A stretch of DNA of 15,180 nucleotides from a virus. The position numbers and the translations under genes were made by a program. Where the stretch lies: UHGV virus genome UHGV-0058267; one strand, given 5' to 3'. Shown here in pieces: positions 1,523-14,312 of this stretch. A model generated the notes under the pieces. That model was not told where the DNA came from, did not search any database, and saw only the letters and a program-made list of their open reading frames with translations. Numbering within the stretch: the stretch's first letter is position 1; each line of letters starts with the position of its first letter.

Positions 1523-2376
1523 GCACCATCCTGAAATGGGCGGGAAATAAAACGGCCATTATGGCAGAACTGAAAAAATACCTTCCTGCTGGCCCGCGAC
1601 TGGTTGAACCTTTCGCGGGTTCCTGTGCTGTGATGATGGAGACGGATTACCCCAGCTATTTGGTTGCGGATATTAATCCTGATTTAATCAACCTCTATAA
1701 AAAGGTTGCCGCTGATTGTGAATCGTTTATATCTCGCGCCAGAGTTTTATTTGAGAACGCAAACAGGGAGATGGCTTATTACAACATAAGGCAGGAGTTT
1801 AATTACTCAACTGAAATTACTGATTTCATGAAAGCAGTATATTTCCTGTATCTCAATCGTCACGGTTACCGTGGTTTATGTCGCTATAACAAGAGCGGGC
1901 ATTTCAACATTCCCTACGGTAATTATAAAAATCCGTATTTCCCTGAAAAAGAAATTCGTGCATTTGCAGAAAAAGCCCAGCGGGCAACATTTATCTGCGC
2001 CAGCTTCGATGAAACGCTGGCAATGTTGCACGCGGGAGATGTGGTGTATTGCGATCCGCCGTATGACGGTACGTTTTCCGGCTATCACACTGATGGTTTC
2101 ACTGAAGATGACCAGTATCACCTGGCATCCGTTCTTGAACATCGGTCATCAGAAGGACATCCAGTCATTGTTTCTAACAGTGACACATCCCTGATCCGTT
2201 CGCTGTATCGCAATTTTACTCACCACTATATCAAGGTAAAACGCAGCATCGGTGTGGCAGCTGGCGAGGGTAAATCAGCAACAGAAATCATTGCTGTTTC
2301 CGGGCCGTGCTGCTGGATGGGATTTGATTATTCGCGTGGCGTGGATAGTTCTGCCGTGTACGGAGTACGTGTATGA
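1519..2376 (+). CDS. dam: Dam-type N6-adenine DNA methyltransferase (orphan, phage-encoded)
   Basis: ATG at 1519 preceded by GGAGGTG; N-terminus [11 protein letters not shown] and catalytic DPPY motif ([10 protein letters not shown]); about 285 aa; stop overlaps the gpA start (ATGA at 2373-2376). Confidence 0.85.
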
Positions 2377-4787
2377 GTCATGACGATATGAGCAACTCTA
2401 GCGGCTTTAACGAGGCCGCTGCAGCATTTTCATGGAACGGCCCGAAAAAGGCCATTAACCCTTATCTGGACCCGGCGGAAGTTGCGCCGGAGTCTGCACT
2501 TTCAAACCTGATCACTCTGTACGCTGCCGATAATGAGCAGGAACAGCTGCGCCGCGATGCACTGAGTGAGCAGGTCTGGGAGCGTTATTTCTTTAATGAA
2601 TCTCGTGATCCTGTCCAGCGCGAAATGGAGCAGGATAAGCTCATTAGCCGGGCAAAGCTGGCGCATGAACAGCAGCGTTTTAACCCGGACATGGTCATTC
2701 TGGCGGACGTCAGCGCCCAGCCCACCCATATTAGCAAGCAGCTGATGCAACGTATCGAATACTTCAGCAGCCTGGGCAGGCCAAAGGCTTATTCCCGCTA
2801 TTTGCGTGAGACGATTAAGCCATGTCTGGAGCGACTGGATTGTGTACGTGACAGTCAGCTGTCTGCTTCTTTCCGTTTTATGGCAAGCCATCAAGGGATG
2901 GAGGGCCTGCTGATCCTGCCTGAAATGAGTCAGGATCAGGTGAAACGCCTGTCCACCCTGGTAGCTGCGCATATGAGCATGTGCCTTGATGCAGCTTGTG
3001 GCGATTTGTATGCCACCGATGACGTTAAGCCAGAAGAAATCCGCAAGACATGGGAAAAGGTGGCGGCGGAAACCCTGCGTCTGGATGTCATCCCACCTGC
3101 GTTTGAGCAACTCCGTCGGAAAAGAAACCGCCGTAAACCCGTGCCCTATGAACTCATTCCGGGTTCGCTGGCGCGTATGTTGTGCGCCGACTGGTGGTAT
3201 CGGAAATTATGGAAGATGCGTTGCGAATGGCGGGAAGAGCAGTTGCGTGCTGTCTGCCTGGTCAGCAAAAAAGCATCTCCCTATGTCAGCTATGAAGCCG
3301 TGATGCATAAACGTGAGCAGCGCCGTAAGTCGCTGGAGTTTTTCCGTTCTCATGAACTGGTGAACGAAGACGGCGACACGCTGGACATGGAGGATGTGGT
3401 AAACGCCAGCAGCAGCAACCCTGCGCATCGCCGCAATGAGATGATGGCCTGTGTTAAAGGTCTGGAGCTTATCGCGGAAATGCGCGGTGACTGCGCCGTT
3501 TTCTACACTATCACCTGTCCGTCACGTTTCCATTCCACGCTCAACAACGGCAGACCCAACCCGACCTGGACAAATGCGACGGTAAGACAAAGCAGCGATT
3601 ATCTGGTCGGCATGTTTGCTGCATTTCGTAAGGCAATGCACAAAACCGGGTTGCGCTGGTATGGCGTGCGGGTGGCTGAGCCGCACCATGACGGTACTGT
3701 GCACTGGCATCTCATGTGCTTCATGCGTAAAAAAGACCGCCGCGCCATCACTGCATTACTGCGTAAGTTTGCCATCCGTGTAGACCGCGAGGAGCTGGGC
3801 AACAACACGGGGCCACGCTTTAAGTCTGAGCTGATTAACCCGCGCAAAGGAACACCGACAAGCTACATCGCGAAATACATCAGTAAGAACATTGACGGGC
3901 GTGGTCTGGCTGGCGAGATCAGCAAGGAAACGGGTAAATCCCTGCGTGATAACGCCGAATACGTTAATGCCTGGGCGTCTCTGCATCGTGTTCAGCAGTT
4001 CCGCTTCTTTGGTATTCCGGGACGTCAGGCTTACCGTGAACTTCGCTTGCTGGCTGGTCAGGCGGCAAGGCAACAGGGTGACAAAAAAGCAGGTGCGCCG
4101 ATACTGGATGACCCGCGCCTTGATGCCATCCTGGCTGCTGCTGATGCTGGTTGTTTTGCCACCTACATCATGAAGCAGGGCGGCGTACTGGTTCCCCGTA
4201 AATATCACCTTATCAGAACCGCTTATGAAATCAACGAAGAGCCGACCGCCTATGGCGATCACGGCATTCGTATTTATGGCATCTGGTCACCCATTGCAGA
4301 GGGCAAGATCTGCACTCATGCAGTGAAGTGGAAAATGGTTCGTAAGGCCGTTGACGTTCAGGAGGCGGTAGCCGACCAGGGCGCTTGCGCCCCTTGGACT
4401 CGTGGCAATAACTGTCCCCTTGCTGAAAATTTGAACCAACAGGAGAAAGATAAATCAGCAGATGGGGACCCCAGAACGGATATTATCAGCATGGATGACA
4501 AGGAGTTGCACGATTTCCTGCACAGTATGAGCAAAAAAGAGCGCCGGGAACTGGCAGAAAGGCTTCGCCTGGTTAAACCGATACGGCGTAAAGACTACAA
4601 ACAGCGAATTACAGACCATCAGCGACTGCAGCTCGTCTATGAGCTGAAGTCCAGAGGATTTGATGGTAGCGAGAAAGAGGTCGATTTACTCCTTCGCGGC
4701 GGCAGTATTCCGTCAGGAGCAGGCCTGCGTATCTTCTATCGGAACCAGCGTTTGCGGGAAGATGATAAGTGGCGGAACCTGTATTAA
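2373..4787 (+). CDS. A: P2 gpA-like rolling-circle replication initiator (HUH endonuclease)
   Basis: 804-aa ORF; HUH-type motif VHWHLM and paired tyrosines YIAKYISK; size and position match the P2-family A gene. Confidence 0.85.
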
Positions 4788-4879
4788 TTACGCGGGTTAA
4801 CAATTCGTGCTCTAAATAATACCCGGTATATCAGGCTGATGAACGTAAAAAAACGTTTTACATCAGTAAGATTATTGTA

Positions 4880-4899
4880 TACTGTGAATATAAACAGTG
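4880..4899 (+). promoter_or_regulatory. LexA (SOS) box, CTGT-N8-ACAG
   Basis: tactgtgaatataaacagtg: CTGT at 4882-4885, 8-nt AT-rich spacer, ACAG at 4894-4897; lies 40-60 bp upstream of the 4941 ORF within AT-rich promoter-like sequence. Confidence 0.6.
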
Positions 4900-4940
4900 G
4901 TTATATATACAGTATTGCGTGTGGTGTCATAGGAGGAAAA

Positions 4941-5129
4941 ATGCAGGACTATTTTTTGGAGTCTTTGAAGCTCCAGCGCATTGATTTTTTTCTTAAGCTT
5001 GTCGCGGCTAGTGAGTGTAGTGATGAAGAGAAGGGGCTGGCTCTGCAGTGGGTTTCTGAATTGACTGATGAACTCATGGCAAAAATCAGAACTCACGAAT
5101 ACAACCGCTCAATGGATGTCATCAGTTGA
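4941..5129 (+). CDS. small SOS-regulated protein (62 aa), candidate Tum-like antirepressor position
   Basis: ATG at 4941 preceded by AGGAGG; directly downstream of the LexA box; followed 20 nt later by the DinI-like gene. Confidence 0.45.
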   Translation: MQDYFLESLKLQRIDFFLKLVAASECSDEEKGLALQWVSELTDELMAKIRTHEYNRSMDVIS

Positions 5130-5149
5130 GGTGACTTTTATGCGCATTG

Positions 5150-5373
5150 AAATAATGATCGATAAAGAGCAGAAGATTAGCCAGTCTACCCTGGACGCCC
5201 TTGAATCCGAGCTTTACCGCAATCTGCGCCCCCTGTATCCCAAAACGGTAATTCGTATCCGAAAAGGTAGCTCTAACGGTGTGGAACTGACCGGACTGCA
5301 ACTGGACGAAGAAAGAAAACAAGTGATGAAAATTATGCAGAAGGTGTGGGAAGACGACAGCTGGCTGCATTAA
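5150..5373 (+). CDS. DinI-family protein (74 aa)
   Basis: MRIEIMIDK...LDALESEL...WEDDSWLH parallels E. coli DinI (MRIEVTIAK...IDALAGEL...WESADDWF) as recalled; RBS GAGGTGA; LexA box upstream. Confidence 0.75.
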
Positions 5374-5462
5374 GAAACGTTGCTGGCATCAGTACTTGAT
5401 TCTGAAGCCAGCAAGGTTGAACAACGAGCAGGGCGAGGCGTTAGTGTTATCATCAAAGAATT

Positions 5463-6020
5463 TCACATAAACATCTGGATTTGCTCGTTTTTTAGTTGGT
5501 TGATTTTTTCGCGCAATCTGATCTTTTCATCAGCTTTTTCCAAAGAGGCTGGTGACATGCAGTTAATCAAAGCGTCAAGGTGCTCTGGAGATTTGATAAT
5601 AAAGAACTTTTTGTATTTATTAACAAAAACGACAGAGCATTTTTTACGTTTAAGAAGCTCAATCACGTTACTCAGAGTACCCGTGCTCTTCGTATCCCAA
5701 ACCATTAATCCATAATCGGCTTCTTCTGCCATTTTGAGATCTTTCGCAGTGAAAAACGCGCGAGTGCCGGCTGCATGGCTAGTACTTACTACATGTACAG
5801 GCCATGAGCCAAGATTATTGCGCGGTTTTTCTGAGCTACTGAATACTGTGGCTTTTTCACATCCAAGTTCTAGCAATACGCGTTGAACAGATGAATCAAC
5901 ACCATTGGCATCACCAACTACAATACGAAAACGCGAGTTAACAATTTTTTTCAGACGATCCACGATGAGTGTGTCAAGGTTTTTGATGGTTATTGAACCA
6001 GCAACAAATACCGTAGTCAT
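5463..6020 (-). CDS. SLOG/DprA-like Rossmann-fold protein (about 185 aa), candidate nucleotide-binding or processing component
   Basis: Likely start is the ATG at 6018-6020 (MTTVFVAGS...) with GGAG 6 nt upstream. Motifs VFVAGS and GDANGVDSSVQRVLLELG recall the G-x-A-x-G-[IV]-D core of DprA/Smf/LOG-type domains. Starts 2 nt after the upstream gene's stop. Confidence 0.45.
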   Translation of the reverse strand: MTTVFVAGSITIKNLDTLIVDRLKKIVNSRFRIVVGDANGVDSSVQRVLLELGCEKATVFSSSEKPRNNLGSWPVHVVSTSHAAGTRAFFTAKDLKMAEEADYGLMVWDTKSTGTLSNVIELLKRKKCSVVFVNKYKKFFIIKSPEHLDALINCMSPASLEKADEKIRLREKINQLKNEQIQMFM

Positions 6021-6022
6021 CA

Positions 6023-6604
6023 CTATCTCCAAGTCAAAGCTGCAACATAAATGCTTCTAACCTTAGTATAATCGTTTAGCACAGCACAAGCAGCCTCCAT
6101 AGATGCGCCTGTATGGTAGAGGTCGTCAATGATAAGGACATTCCAGTTGCCATTATTCTCAATACTGTCATTAACAGAGAACGAATTACCCAGCGCCGTG
6201 ATTTTCTCTTCTTTTGTATTCAGGTTCTTTAGCGAAGCCCCGCCGGGGGCTTTCAACAAGAGGTCATCGAAGCATGGTTTGCCAACTAGTTTGGCTAGTT
6301 CCTGAGCTATTTCGGTCACTGGCTGGCGTGCACGCTGATTAGATGCAGCCATTGGAACGATAAACCCGACATTGCTGAAATGAGGAAAGGCATGCTCTGC
6401 TAGGCATTGGGCTAAAGGCTTAACTTGTGACCAATCGTCACGGTATTTAAGCTGGAAAAGAGATTCGCCTACCTCAGTACGCTCAGTCTCAAACCGCATA
6501 TGTCCCCACTCATCGTAACCAATGGGAATGCTGCGGATGCTGTGTTTATCCATCGCAAGACCTAATTCCCAATTTCCAACAATCTGTTTTATGTTGACTT
6601 TCAT
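6023..6604 (-). CDS. phosphoribosyltransferase (PRTase)-like protein (193 aa)
   Basis: VLIIDDLYHTGAS fits the type I PRTase PRPP-binding signature (four hydrophobic residues, two acidic, then T-G); first gene of a two-gene minus-strand operon. Confidence 0.55.
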   Translation of the reverse strand: MKVNIKQIVGNWELGLAMDKHSIRSIPIGYDEWGHMRFETERTEVGESLFQLKYRDDWSQVKPLAQCLAEHAFPHFSNVGFIVPMAASNQRARQPVTEIAQELAKLVGKPCFDDLLLKAPGGASLKNLNTKEEKITALGNSFSVNDSIENNGNWNVLIIDDLYHTGASMEAACAVLNDYTKVRSIYVAALTWR

Positions 6605-6951
6605 GGCTCACCGTTTGCTGTGTAAAACACCAAAGACTACCTCTTGTTATATTTGGTGAAAGCGAAAGTTTCATTTTTTGCAGTGGAGATCAAATGTTAC
6701 TCCGTGAACATTTTTAGCATGTGGCCTCGCTACACGGTTTGGCGTAACTACTGCATGTCTATACTGCATGAATCCGCATGATCGTTTAAGGATCGCTCTA
6801 GTTGGGGCCTGCTAGGTATGGCGGGCTTTTGCTTATGTCATGCAGGTGCATGAAAACCACTATATAAAGCGGGCAGGCGTGGCGGGGATACGATTGCGCT
6901 CGCATCCTTTTCGTATTAATCTGATATCAATTTAAAACGAAGAGTTCGCAA

Positions 6952-8055
6952 ATGAAAATTATTTCAATATTTAATAATAAAGGTGGTGTAGGAAAATCCA
7001 CTCTTGGATACCATACTGCGCATGCATTGGCAGAGAAAGGTATTAAAACTTTAATGATTGACCTTGATCCACAGTCGAATCTCACTTTACAGTGTATTTC
7101 TCCTGAGGAGTTAGAAAAGTTATGGCTAGAAGAAGAGCCATTTATTGAGGACTTCCAATCAGCTTTAGAGGAAAGTAAACTTTCGTATCAAGATTTTTTG
7201 AGTAAGCCGAGAAGCATTCATTGCTTATTAAAACCAATAGAAGATGGCGTCTACGAATCTTCTTCACTAAGTTCTGTTTATGAGCTTAATGATAAATTAG
7301 GTATTATTCCAGGTCGTTTAAGTTTGCATAAATATGAGGATAAAATCGCGAAGGGTTGGAGTGATGCCTTCATGGGAGAACCTCAAGCACTGCGACTTAT
7401 TACCAGTATTAGGAACTTATGTCTAGAAGCAGAGGAAAAATTTGGTTATGAAATGGTAATAATAGACACATCTCCTAGTCTCGGTATGCTTAACAGAGTT
7501 ATCATTTCTACATCAACCGGATTTTTTGTCCCATGCATGCCCGATATGTTCTCCACCTTTGGGATTACTAACATAGGAGAGTCATTAAAGAATTGGAAAA
7601 ATCAGTTCGATACCATGTATAAACTTTTGCCTGATAAAAAGAGAAATGTTTTCCCTAAAAACTTCGTTAAGTTTTTAGGTTATACTATTTATAACGCGAA
7701 GAAATATGAAGGCAGAAATGAACTTGATTTAGCGACCGCGCATTACTCATATGTTCAGAAAATTCCCAATGTGATCAAAAAACACATTCCTCAAGAATGT
7801 TATCAAGAGCAAGATCTTGCAGACATTTCACAACCAATTGGTGGAAAATCAGTTATTCACTCGCATAATACTCTTCCTTCTATGTCTCAAAAGTATAGGG
7901 TGCCCATATGGAAAGTTCCTTTCATCCAATCCATGAGCGCAGAAGACAGAGCCACTGTTTCAGGTAATAGACAGACTTTTCTTGACAAGCAGCAGGCATA
8001 TAGTGATTTTGCCGATTCTCTTTTGGCTCGTATTGATAAGATTGGAGAAGAATAG
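6952..8055 (+). CDS. ParA/MinD-family ATPase (367 aa)
   Basis: Deviant Walker A NNKGGVGKST near the N-terminus and Walker B-like MVIIDTSPS; strongly AT-rich coding sequence. Confidence 0.8.
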   Translation: MKIISIFNNKGGVGKSTLGYHTAHALAEKGIKTLMIDLDPQSNLTLQCISPEELEKLWLEEEPFIEDFQSALEESKLSYQDFLSKPRSIHCLLKPIEDGVYESSSLSSVYELNDKLGIIPGRLSLHKYEDKIAKGWSDAFMGEPQALRLITSIRNLCLEAEEKFGYEMVIIDTSPSLGMLNRVIISTSTGFFVPCMPDMFSTFGITNIGESLKNWKNQFDTMYKLLPDKKRNVFPKNFVKFLGYTIYNAKKYEGRNELDLATAHYSYVQKIPNVIKKHIPQECYQEQDLADISQPIGGKSVIHSHNTLPSMSQKYRVPIWKVPFIQSMSAEDRATVSGNRQTFLDKQQAYSDFADSLLARIDKIGEE

Positions 8056-8057
8056 TT

Positions 8058-8735
8058 ATGGCTCTTAAAGAAAAATATGCGGACATTTATAGGCGTCTTA
8101 AAGATGAGATCGATGCCTATGAATATTTCATGAAGAATATTAAAAATTTTTTCGAGTCAACTAAAGTAAAAGCTCATGTCCATTCACTTCGTTTTAGGTT
8201 GAAAGATATTGATCATCTTTTAGAGAAAATAGAAAGAAAAAACCATGAGGATGATCAGTTACCTGAAGCAGAGCGAAAAGGTCATATCACAGCTGAAAAT
8301 ATTTTTAACCGTATAACGGATATAGCTGGAATAAGAGTATTACACCTTCATTTAAGTCAAATGGAAGATATACATCGTGCAATTATGAGGGCAGTAGATG
8401 AAGGGGAGTATGCGCTTTTTGAAGAGCCAAAGGCATATACTTGGGATCCTGAGTCCAAAGTTTATTTTGAGAGTTTGGGTCTTAAGCCTCATGTAAAACA
8501 AAGTTTTTATACGAGCATTCATTATGTCCTGAAACCTAATAGAGAAGGGAGTGTTACTTGTTGTGAAGTTCAAGTCAGAACTCTTCTTGAGGAGGTTTGG
8601 GGGGAAATTGATCATACAATGAATTATCCTATCCAGCATGTCGATGAGAACTGCAAAGAACAGATAAAAATTCTTGCTAGACTGATTGGCGCTGGAAGTC
8701 ATTTAGCTGATTCAATTATGAAACGCTATCAATGA
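8058..8735 (+). CDS. RelA/SpoT-type nucleotidyltransferase (small alarmone synthetase / toxSAS-like, 225 aa)
   Basis: Synthetase-domain motifs in canonical order: R-x-K...K (RFRLKDIDHLLEK), D-x-x-G-x-R (DIAGIRV), Y-x-S-x-H (YTSIHYV), E-x-Q-x-R-T...W...H (EVQVRTLLEEVWGEIDH). Start is 2 nt after the ParA-like stop with GGAGAA upstream. Confidence 0.7.
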   Translation: MALKEKYADIYRRLKDEIDAYEYFMKNIKNFFESTKVKAHVHSLRFRLKDIDHLLEKIERKNHEDDQLPEAERKGHITAENIFNRITDIAGIRVLHLHLSQMEDIHRAIMRAVDEGEYALFEEPKAYTWDPESKVYFESLGLKPHVKQSFYTSIHYVLKPNREGSVTCCEVQVRTLLEEVWGEIDHTMNYPIQHVDENCKEQIKILARLIGAGSHLADSIMKRYQ

Positions 8736-8766: not shown

Positions 8767-9141
8767 TTAAATAAGTTTGTAGTCTTCAAAGTTTATTATC
8801 GGCTCATCTAACCATTTGTTAATCTCCTCAATTCTCTTTTGAAGAGGTTTAAGTTCGTTCCTAACAAAAACCATACTAGCCTTCTCCACATCCCCAAACC
8901 CCCCAACATTATTAGGCATAATCCCCATCATTTGCGGCGGCACGCGGTGCGCAGCCATCATGTCATCGCGGCTGACATTTTTGATATTCAGAAACTCATC
9001 CTTCGCCGCCACCTCTGACAACGGGATAATCTGAAGCCCGTCCTTTTTGCCGTTAGGCGAGTACATAAATAGGTTGCGGAAGTTACCCAGGGCGGCGGAG
9101 CGATGAGTTCTAACGGGATCGTGGTTGATGCGCATCAGCAT
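8767..9141 (-). pseudogene. Q: 3' remnant of a P2-family portal (gpQ-like) gene; 5' two-thirds missing
   Basis: 124-aa frame whose sequence (PNGKKDGLQIIPLSE...MGIMPNNVGGFGDVEKA) resembles the C-terminal region of P2-family portal proteins as recalled. Expected gene is about 340 codons; the frame ends about 40 bp from the divergent gpW start. Confidence 0.5.
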
Positions 9142-11035: not shown

Positions 11036-12774
11036 GCACAAAATTTTATACCCTGCTGACGGAGATTGGTGCGGCGAAGCTTGCCAGCGCCACTGCACTT
11101 GGTGTGCCGCTTAAAATTACCCATATGGCGGTGGGGGATGGCGGCGGAGCATTGCCGACGCCGGACGCAAAGCAGACTGCACTGGTAAATGAGAAACGCC
11201 GGGCTGCGCTGAATATGCTTTATATCGACCCGCAGAACAGCAGCCAGATTATTGCCGAACAGGTGATCCCTGAAAACGAGGGCGGTTGGTGGATACGTGA
11301 AGTGGGCCTGTTTGATGAGTCAGGGGCATTGATTGCCGTGGGCAACTGCCCGGAAAGCTATAAGCCGCAACTGGCTGAAGGCAGCGGGCGCACCCAGACC
11401 GTGCGTATAGTGCTGATAACCAGCTGCACGGACAATATCACCCTGAAAATCGATCCTGCCGTCGTGCTGGCAACCCGCAAGTATGTGGATGACAAGGCAC
11501 TGGAGCTGAAGGTGTATGTGGATGATCTGATGGCAAAACACCTTGCCGCACCAGATCCGCATTCACAGTACGCGCCAAAAGCCAGCCCGACATTTACCGG
11601 AACCCCCAAAGCGCCAACGCCAGCGGCAGGGAATAATACCACGCAGGTTGCGACCACCGCGTTTGTACAGGCGGCACTGACGGCTCTTATTAATGGTGCG
11701 CCAGCCACGCTGGACACACTGAAAGAAATAGCCGCAGCCATTAACAATGACCCGAAATTCAGCACCACCATTAACAATGCGCTGGCACTGAAAGCGCCGC
11801 TGTCGAGTCCGGCACTTACCGGAACGCCAACAGCACCTACTGCGGCACAGTCGGTCAACAATACACAGATTGCCACCACGGCTTTTGTGAAATCGGCGAT
11901 TGCAGCAATGGTGGGTTCTGCACCTGCGGCACTGGATACACTGAACGAACTGGCGGCGGCGCTGGGGAATGACCCGAACTTTGCCACGACAATGCTTAAT
12001 GCACTGGCAGGTAAACAACCGCTGGACAATACGCTGACTAATTTGAGTGGAAAGGATGTAGCTGGTCTTCTCACATACCTTGGTTTGGGAGAAGCCAGAT
12101 TCTCTGGTCGTTTGTTAAACACGAATATTTTTAAAAGCTCTGGAAAATATATCCCAACACCAGGGACAAAAAAGATAAGGGTCATTGCCTCTGGTGGCGG
12201 TGGCGGCGGCGGTGGGGTTCCTGAAACAACAGAAAATCAGCAGGCAACAGCCGGAGCTGGATTGAGCGGCGCATTTATTGAAGCATTTTTCGAGGTTGAT
12301 AATGATTTCGAAGTCAACGTTATTATCGGTGCTGCAGGTAAAGGGGGGGGAGCCGGAGGAAATTCAGGTAGTGAAGGTGGCACAACTTATTTCGGTTCCA
12401 TGATAACTGCACCAGGTGGTACAGGCGGTGGCGCGGGGGGAGCATCTGCAAACACATCATATATTCAGGGTATTTCATGGGGTGCCAGTCCGACATCGTC
12501 CGGTACAGTACTAAGAGCATTTCGCTGTAGTGCAAAAACACCAGGAGCAATGGTTATCTCTGTTAAAGCTGTAGCAGGTGGTACCGGGGGGGATACACCA
12601 TTAGGTTCAGGCGGTATAGGTGGTGCAAGTTCTTCATCATTCAGCGGACGTGGTGGTGGTAAAGCTGAGGGCTTTGGTGCTGGCGGAGGCGGAGCCTGCG
12701 CACCTGCTGGAAGTGAGGCTCAATCGGGAGGTGACGGTGCCCCGGGAATAGTTATTGTTGAGGAGTATGCCTGA
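11032..12774 (+). CDS. H: tail fibre protein gpH: constant N-terminal part plus currently expressed glycine-rich variable C-terminal part
   Basis: 580 aa; N-terminus MSTKFYTLLTEIGAAKLASA resembles P2 gpH as recalled; the left inversion site lies in-frame at 12068-12093; C-terminal about 227 aa are Gly-rich and lower in GC. Confidence 0.8.
   Translation: MSTKFYTLLTEIGAAKLASATALGVPLKITHMAVGDGGGALPTPDAKQTALVNEKRRAALNMLYIDPQNSSQIIAEQVIPENEGGWWIREVGLFDESGALIAVGNCPESYKPQLAEGSGRTQTVRIVLITSCTDNITLKIDPAVVLATRKYVDDKALELKVYVDDLMAKHLAAPDPHSQYAPKASPTFTGTPKAPTPAAGNNTTQVATTAFVQAALTALINGAPATLDTLKEIAAAINNDPKFSTTINNALALKAPLSSPALTGTPTAPTAAQSVNNTQIATTAFVKSAIAAMVGSAPAALDTLNELAAALGNDPNFATTMLNALAGKQPLDNTLTNLSGKDVAGLLTYLGLGEARFSGRLLNTNIFKSSGKYIPTPGTKKIRVIASGGGGGGGGVPETTENQQATAGAGLSGAFIEAFFEVDNDFEVNVIIGAAGKGGGAGGNSGSEGGTTYFGSMITAPGGTGGGAGGASANTSYIQGISWGASPTSSGTVLRAFRCSAKTPGAMVISVKAVAGGTGGDTPLGSGGIGGASSSSFSGRGGGKAEGFGAGGGGACAPAGSEAQSGGDGAPGIVIVEEYA
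12068..12093. repeat. left 26-bp invertase crossover site (gix/hix-like)
   Basis: ttctcacatacc-tt-ggtttgggagaa: two 12-bp half-sites around a 2-bp core, fitting the TTnTCnnAAACC half-site pattern of Gin/Hin/Cin/Pin sites as recalled. Inverted copy at 13523-13548, with a 21-bp perfect inverted match (12080-12100 versus 13516-13536). Confidence 0.6.
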
Positions 12775-13040
12775 TGAGTAATTTTGCTCTGATTGAACAT
12801 GGCGTGGTGAAAAATATTATTATCTGGGATGGAGAGGGTGATTTATTCTCTAATTGCGAAATTATAAATATTGATCATATAGATGCAGGCGTCGGTTGGT
12901 TCTATTCTGACGGAGAGTTTATAGCACCACCGGAACCGGAAATGACTGAATATGATGTTGGTAACATCGACGCGGTGATGGAAGCAGATACCAGCACCGC
13001 GCCGGGGGTTATCTGGCCAGTTCCACCTGAGATGGTTTAA
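12774..13040 (+). CDS. small protein coupled to gpH, putative tail-fibre assembly/chaperone protein for the expressed fibre variant
   Basis: Start overlaps the gpH stop (TGATG at 12772-12776) with GAGGAG upstream; 88 aa; function inferred from position only. Confidence 0.4.
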   Translation: MSNFALIEHGVVKNIIIWDGEGDLFSNCEIINIDHIDAGVGWFYSDGEFIAPPEPEMTEYDVGNIDAVMEADTSTAPGVIWPVPPEMV

Positions 13041-13269
13041 TCTCAATCAGAATGGGTTCGCCATTCTCGTTAACAGATATTTCCATTCCTTCAGGGATTT
13101 CAGATGCAGTAAAAAACCAGTTATCTTCTGGTAATTCCACAGCCCCGGTCACGTCATGAAGACCGGGGATTACTTCAGTCAAAGTAACAGGATTAAACAG
13201 GCGCACAATAAACTCTCCAGGAAAAAGCACTTGTTGATGGTCTTCCGTCGTACATCTGGCAGCGGACAT
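13009..13269 (-). CDS. small protein, putative tail-fibre assembly/chaperone protein of the silent cassette
   Basis: Minus-strand ORF converging on 12774-13040 (about 30-nt overlap at the 3' ends). Start codon uncertain (ATG at 13269, GTG at 13230, or the tracked start at 13296); overlaps the end of the silent fibre cassette. Confidence 0.3.
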   Translation of the reverse strand: MSAARCTTEDHQQVLFPGEFIVRLFNPVTLTEVIPGLHDVTGAVELPEDNWFFTASEIPEGMEISVNENGEPILIEIKPSQVELAR

Positions 13270-13534
13270 AAAAACCTGTATTACTGACCTGGTCATCCAC
13301 GATCATTGAAACGTGAACGTTATTAGGTGTGGCCTCGTAATCTGTTCTTATTCTTTCCGCTATGCTGATAAAACGTGAAAGCTTAGGTAGTGCAATTGGA
13401 TAAACGACTTTAGCCAGCCCATTATCATTGGAACCACCAGTTCCAAATACTTCTATTGCACCATCTGACCAGCGTATCCATGCACCATTGACATTAGCTC
13501 CTCGCTGAATGACATATCTGGCTTCTCCCAAACC
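13193..13534 (-). CDS. silent alternative tail-fibre C-terminal cassette, promoterless and start-less in this orientation
   Basis: The minus-strand frame reads ...GLGEAR-YVIQRGANVNG... through the right crossover site, and the same GLGEAR junction is encoded in gpH at the left site (LTYLGLGEAR). Inversion would fuse about 110 alternative codons onto the gpH constant part. Confidence 0.55.
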   Translation of the reverse strand, partial: GLGEARYVIQRGANVNGAWIRWSDGAIEVFGTGGSNDNGLAKVVYPIALPKLSRFISIAERIRTDYEATPNNVHVSMIVDDQVSNTGFYVRCQMYDGRPSTSAFSWRVYCAPV

Positions 13535-13548
13535 AACGTTTAAGAAAA
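13523..13548. repeat. right 26-bp invertase crossover site (gix/hix-like)
   Basis: ttctcccaaacc-aa-cgtttaagaaaa; inverted relative to 12068-12093; about 55 bp upstream of the invertase start. Confidence 0.6.
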
Positions 13549-13603
13549 TGCAGAGATTACGGCTAACTGGCATCATCTCCGGTTTTTATTCAGGGGGATG
13601 ATC

Positions 13604-14170
13604 ATGCTTATTGGCTATGTACGCGTGTCAACAAATGACCAGAACACCGATTTGCAACGTAATGCACTGAACTGCGCGGGATGTGAGCGGATTTTTGAGG
13701 ACAAAATCAGTGGCACTAAGTCCGACAGACCGGGGCTGAAAAAACTGCTCAGGACACTATCGGCAGGAGACACGCTGGTTGTCTGGAAGCTGGACCGGTT
13801 GGGGCGCAGTATGCGGCATCTTGTTACGCTGATAGAAGAGTTGCGCCAGCGTGGCGTGAATTTCCGAAGCCTGACTGACAGTATTGATACCAGTACCCCA
13901 ATGGGCCGTTTCTTTTTTCATGTCATGGGTGCCCTGGCTGAAATGGAACGCGAACTGATAGTTGAACGTACCAGGGCAGGGCTGGCTGCAGCTCGTGTTA
14001 AAGGCAGAGTAGGTGGACGCCGTCCTAAGTTGACCAGCGAACAGTGGGCACAGATTGGGCGTTTACTCGAGGCCGGAGAATCAAGACAGCGTATTGCACT
14101 GATTTTTGATGTAGGCGTTTCTACCATTTATCGAAAATTTCTGGCAAATAAGAGCAATGAATCTCCCTGA
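13604..14170 (+). CDS. serine-recombinase DNA invertase of the Gin/Hin/Cin/Pin family
   Basis: MLIGYVRVSTNDQNTDLQRNAL... is near-identical in its N-terminus to Mu Gin as recalled, with the catalytic Ser in RVSTNDQ and a C-terminal helix-turn-helix region; about 189 aa. Confidence 0.9.
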   Translation: MLIGYVRVSTNDQNTDLQRNALNCAGCERIFEDKISGTKSDRPGLKKLLRTLSAGDTLVVWKLDRLGRSMRHLVTLIEELRQRGVNFRSLTDSIDTSTPMGRFFFHVMGALAEMERELIVERTRAGLAAARVKGRVGGRRPKLTSEQWAQIGRLLEAGESRQRIALIFDVGVSTIYRKFLANKSNESP

Positions 14171-14312
14171 ATCAGCTTTATTTTGATTATCCCTGAAAGC
14201 AGACAAATACCGTCATTTTGTGTGAATAACGGTACAACTGCGCTTAGCTGTTTGTCAGGCACAATCACTTCAACATAGGGCGAAGCCTAATCCAATCAGG
14301 AGGTTCGCCACT

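Follow-up and report, generated by a model that had tools for sequence, protein, structure and literature searches.

A probable SOS-controlled tumA–tumB operon in a 186/Fels-2-type P2-like prophage

The region downstream of the replicase gene in the viral genome UHGV-0058267, of which a stretch of 15,180 nucleotides was analyzed (hereafter, the window), is very likely the SOS operon of a 186/Fels-2-type P2-like prophage (Peduoviridae), in which a LexA-repressed promoter directs the production of TumA and TumB; we put the probability of this reading at about 0.9. An earlier note on this DNA had read the region as an operon of the 186 tum type, SOS-inducible and encoding an antirepressor, which is supported by homology, by the geometry of the promoter and by genetics in the Escherichia coli prophage DuoHS. 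The arrangement itself is already described, with those genetics, in DuoHS, which is ~98% identical. The operon lies directly downstream of the gpA replicase gene (2373–4787; Pfam Phage_GPA, E = 3.6e-127), and homologues of its first gene are found immediately 3′ of gpA in every locus examined. Its features are the following.

4857–4862, + strand: −35 hexamer TTTACA, read from the sequence, of the tum (p95-like) promoter
4878–4885, + strand: −10 region, either TATACT (4878–4883, 15-nt spacer) or TACTGT (4880–4885, 17-nt spacer)
4880–4899, + strand: LexA box 1, TACTGTGAATATAAACAGTG, predicted, with core CTGT-N8-ACAG at 4882–4897 and a score of ~21 bits
4895–4914, + strand: candidate LexA box 2, CAGTGGTTATATATACAGTA, which scores 18.7 bits and abuts box 1
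4941–5129, + strand: tumA (ORF1), encoding a putative antirepressor of 62 aa, a homologue of the N-terminal half of 186 Tum
5140–5373, + strand: tumB (ORF2), encoding a DinI-family protein of 77 aa that corresponds to Tum72 and to the C-terminal half of 186 Tum

The promoter resembles p95 of phage 186 (NC_001317), with which it shares a −35 hexamer (TTCACA in p95, TTTACA in the window), a spacer of 17–18 nt and a TACTGT that serves as the −10 while also forming the first half of the LexA box. The −35 hexamer was not called by a generic promoter scan; TT(T/C)ACA is equally spaced from the LexA box in every Fels-2-type promoter and in more distant loci. Of the two candidate −10 hexamers, TACTGT is the one annotated as the −10 of 186 p95. 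The CTGT-N8-ACAG box claimed by the earlier note at 4882–4897 is indeed there, over the −10 region, and CTGTGAATATAAACAG is the sole match to this pattern in the window. Taken alone, the bare pattern is weak since 0.15 matches are expected in a window of equal composition and at least one was found in 30 of 200 shuffles. The window was scored with a LexA position weight matrix for which 26 E. coli boxes served as the training set. On this matrix, the score of box 1 corresponds to the median of the training boxes, while the 99.9th percentile for the window is 3.7 bits and the best site outside the promoter reaches 11.6 bits. Moreover, a high-scoring LexA box is located 35–68 nt upstream of the start codon in all the ORF1 homologues examined (16 further loci, including some whose ORF1 proteins are merely 37–50% identical), it is kept although the flanks diverge, and in all six metagenomic or genomic loci it is the top-scoring site of the whole locus. 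Because of this conservation upstream of ORF1 homologues, we accept box 1 as a real site, to which LexA is predicted to bind. At position 4886, box 1 has a G where Fels-2 and DuoHS have the consensus A.

The earlier note had overlooked a second LexA-like box at 4895–4914, whose core (4897–4912) shares one base pair with that of box 1. The first half of box 2 is degenerate, with GTG in place of the canonical CTG, and we thus consider it a candidate LexA site. It is kept at +15 bp in Fels-2, DuoHS, SopEPhi, Klebsiella ST437phi4.1 and Yersinia MLG42, is weak in SEN8, and is absent from 186, PSP3 and ESSI-2-type phages. The resulting 40-nt dual site is identical at 32–34 of 40 positions to the double SOS operators of ColE1, cloacin/klebicin-type and pesticin promoters (the latter from pPCP1), which likewise consist of two LexA boxes with cores sharing one base pair. 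In colicin operons, such double boxes are reported to be bound by two LexA dimers, to confer very tight repression and to prevent the untimely expression of a lethal function (PMC2994835). By analogy, LexA may bind cooperatively to the double box in the window. However, colicin-type double boxes drive bacteriocin or lysis operons, whereas their counterpart in the window, known from its sequence, would drive a prophage induction switch. Our literature searches on tum with SOS boxes and colicin, and on tumA/tumB, returned nothing relevant, and within the literature searched a colicin-type double operator in Fels-2-type tum promoters is undescribed, 186 and PSP3 having a single box.

The 62-aa ORF that had been noticed downstream of the LexA box is confirmed at 4941–5129, with a ribosome-binding site, GGAGG, at 4932–4936. 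ORF1 matches phrog_698 (E = 3.6e-38) and is 98.4% identical to STM2728 of Fels-2, but public annotations label it “hypothetical protein” or, at times, “levan regulatory protein.” It belongs to no Pfam family and has no sequence match in the PDB. It is one profile comparison that points to homology with 186 Tum: when a 31-sequence alignment of the ORF1 family (A1) was compared with 186 Tum using hhalign, residues 3–44 aligned without gaps to residues 3–44 with 94.6% probability and an E value of 7e-8. BLASTP revealed no similarity of ORF1 to 186 Tum or PSP3 TumA, and the comparison of the ORF1 profile with PSP3 TumA was non-significant (7% probability). AlphaFold2 models TumA as a helical hairpin (pLDDT 87.6), for which a Foldseek search of the PDB returned generic helical hairpins alone, all with E > 2. 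A DinI domain fused after the ORF1-like part was found in none of the 120 listed 90%-cluster relatives and in none of 66 representatives at 50% identity. Homologues of ORF1 without DinI exist in ESSI-2-type phages and in several metagenomic prophages, and free-standing proteins of 63–67 aa also exist that share more than 75% identity with the N-terminal half of 186 Tum. TumA would thus be an autonomous module, with the DinI module common but not universal in the family. 186 Tum is known to bind CI, which it inhibits after SOS derepression of p95 (PMC7708051), and TumA may similarly contact CI directly.

As for ORF2, which had been given as 74 aa, it is actually 77 aa long (5140–5373), and its assignment to the DinI family is borne out by a match to Pfam DinI (PF06183) with an E value of 6.6e-23 and 81.3 bits, against a cut-off of 24.2 bits. 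Residues 14–76 of TumB align to positions 1–63 of the 63 in the DinI profile. The protein is 41% identical to residues 71–145 of 186 Tum and matches phrog_189 at profile positions 71–148 of 151. Aligning the two ORFs to 186 tum products, as had been suggested, consequently places ORF1 (by profile) on Tum 3–44 and ORF2 on Tum 71–145. The two ORFs are in different reading frames, as previously stated and confirmed here from the sequence, with 10 nt between the ORF1 stop and the ORF2 ATG. The TGA of ORF1 (5127–5129) overlaps the GAGG of the ORF2 ribosome-binding site, tumB having its own GAGG and ATG. A hairpin spanning the stop codon of tumA and the ribosome-binding site of tumB (5118–5135) was flagged as terminator-like. 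As a structured coupling hairpin it was rejected, since its stability does not exceed that of shuffled sequence (z = −0.65), and we therefore claim no structure-based translational coupling. From its DinI family membership and from the annotation of 186 Tum72 (“modulates SOS induction”), TumB probably modulates RecA filaments.

Genetic evidence on this operon comes from DuoHS, the prophage of E. coli HS. The window's promoter and tumA are ~98% identical to those of DuoHS and to those of Fels-2, and six of the eight changed tumA codons among the three are synonymous. In DuoHS, mitomycin C-induced lysis and viral foci are abolished both by a tum deletion and by lexA(Ind-) (Phollow study, PMC12055606). 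The gene deleted as “tum” is ECHS_RS04495, a 189-nt ORF after the replicase, whose protein is identical to the window's ORF1 at 61 of 62 residues. Hence, in a near-identical prophage the 62-aa gene is required for induction by mitomycin C, and lexA(Ind-) blocks that induction. The promoter and double box of DuoHS are also near-identical to those of the window, with a single base difference in each of the two LexA boxes, but DuoHS is an intact inducible prophage with other cargo downstream of tumB. Even closer is E. coli CFSAN061762, which is 100% identical to the window over 4840–5440 and carries an apparently intact prophage. The CI encoded upstream in CFSAN061762 is 32% identical to 186 CI over 175 aa and 98% identical to DuoHS CI; cI itself falls outside the window.

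Three other readings of the region compete with a LexA-repressed tumA–tumB operon. That the two ORFs are a fused 186-type tum which was frameshifted or pseudogenized, by sequencing error or recent decay, is suggested by the fact that 186 Tum is a single 146-aa protein whose halves correspond to ORF1 and ORF2, here in different frames, and the earlier note had raised this possibility. We find it highly improbable, however, since the identical two-ORF layout is kept in 1,125 of 5,426 complete E. coli genomes and in 56–66 phage records (Klebsiella, Salmonella, Escherichia and Yersinia), which makes resequencing for a frameshift unnecessary. The separate annotation of tumA and tumB in PSP3, the translation signals that ORF2 possesses, the lack of any ORF1-DinI fusion among the relatives listed and the predominance of synonymous changes in tumA all argue against it as well. 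Slightly less improbable, but still very unlikely, is that the sole effector is the DinI-like protein, as an SOS-dampening dinI with no antirepressor role, ORF1 being a leader peptide or some unrelated small protein. dinI is, after all, a classical LexA-regulated gene, and ORF1 has no Pfam family, an uninformative annotation and a negative BLASTP result against Tum. Against this stand the loss of DuoHS induction upon in-frame deletion of the 62-aa gene alone, the existence of LexA-boxed ORF1 homologues without a DinI gene, the profile match of ORF1 to the N-terminal half of Tum and, in a passage of Lemire et al. (PMC3121763) citing a personal communication, the antirepressor activity credited to the upstream gene of PSP3. 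As for a LexA box that matches by chance in AT-rich DNA, in front of a promoter outside SOS control, the frequency of the bare pattern in shuffles would allow it, but we give this explanation next to no credence: the 20-mer scores like the median known E. coli box, far above the rest of the window, a box occupies the same place in 16 of 16 other loci despite divergent flanks, and the near-identical DuoHS fails to be induced in a lexA(Ind-) background.

A different alternative concerns the consequence of induction and leaves the molecular mechanism unchanged. The window's prophage appears to have undergone deletions and to carry defence-like cargo. When compared with DuoHS and CFSAN061762, its portal gene is joined to the 3′ end of gpV at ~9082–9088, and its tail sheath gene is joined to the tape-measure gene at ~15092. 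Head and lysis genes thus appear to have been lost, and the switch may therefore not yield phage production here. Consequently, the operon could be intact but functionally orphaned, in which case the most that TumA could do would be to derepress early genes (excision, replication and Fil) or act in trans on a co-resident prophage of the same immunity. This is a real possibility, although we regard it as somewhat less likely than the opposite. In its favor, the two junctions imply the loss of the portal, terminase, capsid and lysis genes, and cross-induction of other prophages by antirepressors acting in trans has been documented (PMC3121763). On the other hand, neither junction is contiguous in any of the 5,426 complete E. 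coli genomes, and the junctions may for that reason be artefacts of assembly or peculiar to a strain that was not sampled, while the tumAB region shows no sign of decay and is identical to that of the apparently intact CFSAN061762 prophage.

Under our preferred reading, a LexA-repressed tumA–tumB operon, the switch would work as follows. In an undamaged cell, LexA dimers on the two abutting boxes (4880–4899 and 4895–4914), covering the −10 and the transcription start, would keep the promoter off. DNA damage would activate RecA and thereby trigger the self-cleavage of LexA, upon which the promoter would fire, and the transcript would yield TumA, the predicted helical hairpin, together with the DinI-like TumB. 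TumA would then bind the 186-type CI immunity repressor, a protein expected to lack RecA-dependent self-cleavage, and stop it from binding DNA, with the early lytic promoter being derepressed as a result. TumB, like DinI and 186 Tum72, would probably act on RecA filaments and so on the strength or duration of the SOS signal.

This operon can be placed among known systems. It is similar to p95-tum-orf97 of 186 by its location after gene A, and its presumed partner, to judge from the window's closest genome, would be a 186-type CI. From an internal GTG, phage 186 additionally produces the DinI-like part by itself, as Tum72. However, in 186 both modules are fused in one 146-aa protein behind a single LexA box, whereas the window has two genes behind a double box, and orf97 has no homologue downstream in the window. 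The earlier suggestion of a split variant of 186 Tum agrees with the layout after gpA, behind a LexA box, of tumA/tumB in PSP3 and STM2728/STM2726.1 in Fels-2. This layout is annotated in the GenBank record of PSP3, where tumA is given as “UV induction of prophage,” and is reported for Fels-2. A passage in Lemire et al. (2011, PMC3121763) describes the tum of Fels-2 and PSP3 as split by a stop codon. Nevertheless, PSP3 differs by a TumA too divergent from ORF1 for a significant match, by its single LexA box and by a much longer cI (861 nt), while Fels-2 differs by an orf97-sized gene after tumB and by its lack of the conserved 3′ hairpin element described below. A more distant likeness is with Gifsy-1, -2 and -3 (GfoA, GftA and GfhA), in which a LexA-repressed operon encodes a DinI homologue and a small antirepressor acting on a non-cleavable repressor, but there dinI comes first, the antirepressor and repressor families are unrelated, and the phages are lambdoid (PMC3121763).

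A conserved element is located 3′ of tumB.

5376–5445, + strand: predicted structured element, consisting of a hairpin (~5379–5415) followed by an invariant tail, AAGGTTGAACAACGAG-N5-GCGAGGCGTTAG

Similarity between phages ends at ...GTTAG, which is where the cargo starts (alignments A3 and A4). Pairing is maintained in 95.3% of the hairpin cells, as opposed to 31–48% when the partners are slid, and double changes occur in 52 cells, as opposed to 4–8 with slid partners. On the + strand ~32 cells are G-U, whereas only three would be so on the − strand. Folded as a single sequence, the element has a z score of −2.46. It corresponds to no Rfam family at gathering or permissive thresholds, no tRNAs were found in the window, and the invariant tail has no second copy or complementary target within the window. 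A covarying, strand-specific hairpin followed by an invariant 30-nt tail after tumB is undescribed in the literature searched. Two other identities were considered and rejected. The element, with its GGCGAGGCG motif, is not a cos site because the true cos was identified at 6876–6894 (GGCGTGGCGGGGATACGAT), with ...ATAAAGCGGGCA in front of it, an arrangement shared with the right ends of 186 and PSP3. An integron attC-like site, which the AAC...GTT triplets and the GTTAG boundary might evoke, was dismissed since the second stem is far too short. In phages whose cargo site is empty, the element is followed by ~100 nt of conserved sequence and an intrinsic terminator, forming a ~190-nt 3′ UTR. DinR, a 3′-derived sRNA from the Klebsiella dinI mRNA, offers a parallel, in that a dinI-type transcript under LexA control ends in a functional RNA. 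However, no sequence relationship is seen between the two and the element in the window is without an adjacent U-tract terminator, so that the parallel is an analogy alone. We therefore advance only tentatively, and think it rather unlikely, that this 3′ UTR might be a LexA-controlled phage regulatory RNA like DinR and that its GTTAG end might be the precise point at which defence cargo is inserted.

For one of the commonest prophage types in E. coli, this cassette acts as the trigger of induction; approximately one in five complete genomes carry it, and it occurs in Klebsiella and Salmonella too. The switch is well understood, and what the double LexA operator and the conserved 3′ RNA-like element add to it is small. 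The double operator, if true, would place commitment to lysis late in the SOS response and at a high threshold. Recognizing tumA makes the SOS inducibility of P2-like prophages predictable from sequence and allows inducible 186/Fels-2-type elements to be separated from non-inducible P2-type ones, and it suggests that a single-gene knockout could lock such prophages in lysogeny.

The window represents the early-region end of a prophage of the P2/186 type, in which the replicase gene is followed by an intergenic interval and by two short ORFs, laid out as follows.

2373-4787, gpA replicase gene (Pfam Phage_GPA, E 3.6e-127)
4857-4862, + strand, TTTACA, intergenic, downstream of gpA
After TTTACA, + strand, TATACTGT, running into the LexA box
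4882-4897, + strand, CTGTGAATATAAACAG, core of the LexA box (CTGT-N8-ACAG), hereafter box 1
4932-4936, + strand, GGAGG upstream of the ORF1 start
4941-5129, + strand, ORF1 (tumA), 62 codons from ATG 4941 to TGA 5127-5129
5140-5373, + strand, ORF2 (tumB), 77 codons from ATG 5140

The ORF1 stop codon overlaps a GAGG, and the ATG of ORF2 comes 10 nt past that stop. The coordinates and description of this region in the earlier note are correct, apart from the length of the DinI-like ORF, given as 74 aa and actually 77 aa.

The pattern CTGT-N8-ACAG occurs only once in the whole window by pattern search, which is unconvincing alone because it is insufficiently rare (0.15 matches expected per window; at least one match in 30 of 200 shuffles). 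With a weight matrix derived from 26 E. coli LexA sites, a set that is not curated, the score of the 20-mer at 4880-4899 is ~21 bits, the median of the training sites, against 11.6 bits for the best site of the window outside the tum promoter and 3.7 bits for its 99.9th percentile. What decides the matter is phylogeny. A LexA box of 22-29 bits is present 35-68 nt 5' of the start codon of the ORF1 homologue in every locus checked, that is, in 186, PSP3, Fels-2, DuoHS (the P2-like prophage of E. coli HS), SopEPhi, SEN8, Klebsiella ST437-OXA245phi4.1, Yersinia MLG42, ESSI2_ev015 and Cronobacter ESSI-2, and in six metagenomic or genomic loci whose encoded proteins are just 37-52% identical to ORF1. 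In these six distant loci, the box is the single top-scoring match within 4-6 kb. Since the box is kept across groups between which its flanks are unalignable, it is more than a chance match, and the LexA box that had been proposed at 4882-4897 stands.

Both ORFs were compared with Tum, the 146-aa antirepressor of coliphage 186. ORF2 belongs to the DinI family (81.3 bits against a Pfam cut-off of 24.2 bits) and is 41% identical to residues 71-145 of Tum. ORF1 matches no Pfam family and shows no similarity to Tum by BLASTP, and is a member of phrog_698. Its family is large, with 484 clusters when grouped at 90% identity and 66 representatives when grouped at 50%, and its proteins are almost entirely of 50-100 aa, the longer database entries being upstream mis-starts that read through the promoter. 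In an alignment of 31 diverse members, W37 is invariant and D3, E7, R13, E40, L41 and L45 are nearly so, and this alignment matches residues 3-44 of Tum, ungapped, with 94.6% probability (E 7e-8). AlphaFold2 predicts that ORF1 folds into a two-helix hairpin (pLDDT 87.6), for which we found no informative structural neighbours. Together, the profile match of ORF1 and the identity of ORF2 mark them, at the sequence level, as the counterparts of the N-terminal half and of the DinI-like C-terminal half of Tum, respectively.

A frameshift artefact could in principle produce such a split, and is ruled out by the distribution of the two-gene state. E. coli CFSAN061762 carries the segment 4840-5440 at 100% identity, and the cassette is found at ≥80% identity in 1125 of 5426 complete E. 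coli genomes, with two genes annotated every time, and in 56-66 phage records from Klebsiella, Escherichia, Salmonella, Yersinia and Cronobacter. Moreover, six of the eight codon changes in tumA among the window, DuoHS and Fels-2 are synonymous. The split tum variant suspected earlier is thus genuine, and has the arrangement of the tumA/tumB pair of PSP3 and of the Fels-2 pair. TumA homologues with a LexA box and without any DinI gene occur in ESSI-2-type phages and several metagenomic prophages, where ogr and the portal gene come directly next. In further loci, gpA is followed by a lone gene for a 63-67-aa protein that shares more than 75% identity with the N-terminal half of 186 Tum, again lacking a downstream DinI gene. 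On these gene arrangements, TumA is the autonomous module. Because TumA-like proteins also stand alone, the fusion in 186, the model phage, is one state among several; in 186 itself, the DinI-like part is also made separately from an internal GTG.

This system is already known. At the same position, the PSP3 GenBank record describes tumA as "similar to 5' end 186 tum; UV induction of prophage" and tumB as "similar to dinI and 3' end of 186 tum." A passage in Lemire et al. 2011 (PMC3121763), which cites a personal communication and Bunny et al. 2002, states that tum is split by a stop codon in Fels-2 and PSP3 and that the upstream gene of PSP3 has antirepressor activity. In Fels-2, STM2728 shares 98.4% identity with ORF1, and the DinI-family gene STM2726.1 comes next. 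In the 2025 Phollow study (PMC12055606), a "tum" deletion in DuoHS and a lexA(Ind-) strain were made, and neither lyses or forms viral foci after mitomycin C. The deleted locus is ECHS_RS04495 according to the supplement, which in NC_009800 is a 189-nt "hypothetical protein" gene between the replicase and the DinI-like gene. Its product is identical to ORF1 at 61 of 62 residues, and the promoter region is ~98% identical, so that the SOS-inducible antirepressor operon put forward in the earlier note is backed directly by genetics in a nearly identical element. The operon in the window is therefore a near-identical copy of a described, genetically tested system. The repressor locus lies outside the window; in CFSAN061762, the repressor is a 189-aa homologue of 186 CI (32% identity), 98% identical to that of DuoHS.

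Public annotation of tumA lags behind this knowledge. It is labelled "hypothetical protein" in RefSeq E. coli genomes and most phage records, and some entries of UniRef and of Klebsiella phages call homologues "levan regulatory (domain) protein." In metagenomic data, many gene calls begin 22-39 codons too early, within the promoter.

The promoter contains a further LexA-like site abutting box 1.

4895-4914, + strand, CAGTGGTTATATATACAGTA, box 2 (18.7 bits by weight matrix)

The 16-bp cores of the two boxes have one base in common, and box 2 would be weak on its own because its first half is GTG instead of CTG. It is present at the same offset in all Fels-2-type promoters checked, is weak in SEN8, and is absent from the promoters of 186, PSP3 and ESSI-2-type phages. 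As a query against plasmids, the 45-nt operator matched ~1000 small Col-type plasmids, and in the three checked the downstream gene encodes colicin E1 (N terminus METAVAYYKDGVPYDDKGQ...), a cloacin/klebicin-type bacteriocin, or pesticin on pPCP1. These operators are identical to the 40-nt window site at 32-34 of 40 positions, as near as the tum promoters of more distant phages. Double SOS boxes of colicins bind two LexA dimers and repress very tightly, according to a passage in a 2010 paper (PMC2994835) citing Lu and Chak 1996. By analogy, we infer that the double operator would confer tight, cooperative repression and late induction of TumA. Within an incomplete coverage of the literature, we found no paper linking tum promoters with colicin-type double operators. 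The double operator is a modest lead.

Downstream of the operon, the window contains the following features.

5376-5445, + strand, conserved element directly 3' of tumB: hairpin (~5379-5415), then invariant tail AAGGTTGAACAACGAG-N5-GCGAGGCGTTAG to 5445
5463-6032, - strand, 189-aa partner protein (faint DprA-like match)
6023-6604, - strand, ComF-like phosphoribosyltransferase (PADLOC ShosT E 1.3e-8, PsyrT E 1.7e-7)
6806-6894, + strand, intrinsic terminator-like hairpin GGCCTGCTAG...ATGGCGGGCTTTT, followed by cos
6876-6894, + strand, cos, GGCGTGGCGGGGATACGAT
6952-8735, + strand, second cargo pair, flanked by cos and the portal gene: ParA-family ATPase (367 aa) and RelA/SpoT-domain protein (225 aa)
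~9082-9088, junction 1, portal gene to gpV 3' end (7-nt overlap)
13598-14170, + strand, Hin/Gin-type serine invertase (Resolvase + HTH_7, E 1.7e-52)
~15092, junction 2, tail sheath gene to tape-measure gene

The element is also found 3' of the DinI-like genes of PSP3, 813R9, SopEPhi, Yersinia MLG42 and Klebsiella ST437phi4.1 and, in IMG/VR, of those on over 60 distinct contigs, and is absent from Fels-2, DuoHS and 186; an Rfam search of it returned no family. In an alignment of 28 sequences, pairing holds in 95.3% of stem cells, compared with 31-48% for slid partners, there are 52 double-change cells, against 4-8 in slid controls, and the observed covariation score was reached by 0 of 500 shuffles. 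Since ~32 cells are G-U on the + strand, and just 3 would be on the - strand, the structure is strand specific, in the sense of the tumAB mRNA. The hairpin and tail may serve the SOS operon as an RNA element in its 3' UTR, likewise a modest lead. That the element is a cos site is ruled out by the position of cos, whose 5' sequence, ...ATAAAGCGGGCA, has its match at the right ends of both 186 and PSP3. Phage 813R9 has an empty site: there, 8 nt separate the element from conserved sequence, after which come an intrinsic terminator (GGCCCGCCAG...CTGGCGGGCTTTT) and then cos. The window carries ~1.3 kb of cargo exactly between ...GTTAG and GCATGTCTATAC (~6752), and similarity between phages stops exactly at ...GTTAG, where the cargo starts.

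The cargo pair at 5463-6604, convergent with tumAB, is a candidate Shosta-like defence pair in a hotspot between tumB and cos; the second pair has weak PADLOC candidate matches (PDC-M28B, PDC-S33). Around fil, the segment 371-652 shows no alignment with DuoHS or CFSAN061762, although it is flanked on both sides by sequence 96-98% identical to them, a pattern that suggests local mosaic replacement within the early operon. The invertase adjoins a variable tail-fibre part (~11495-14187) that has no alignment with DuoHS, which suggests an invertible host-range switch. Relative to DuoHS and CFSAN061762, the window has two junctions, neither of which was found in the 5426 complete E. coli genomes. 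At the first, the terminase, capsid and lysis genes are lost, and only the C-terminal 123 aa of the portal protein are left (8767-9141, - strand). The junctions may reflect genuine deletions private to this prophage, or they may have arisen in assembly; in the former case, the prophage under the control of this SOS switch is defective.
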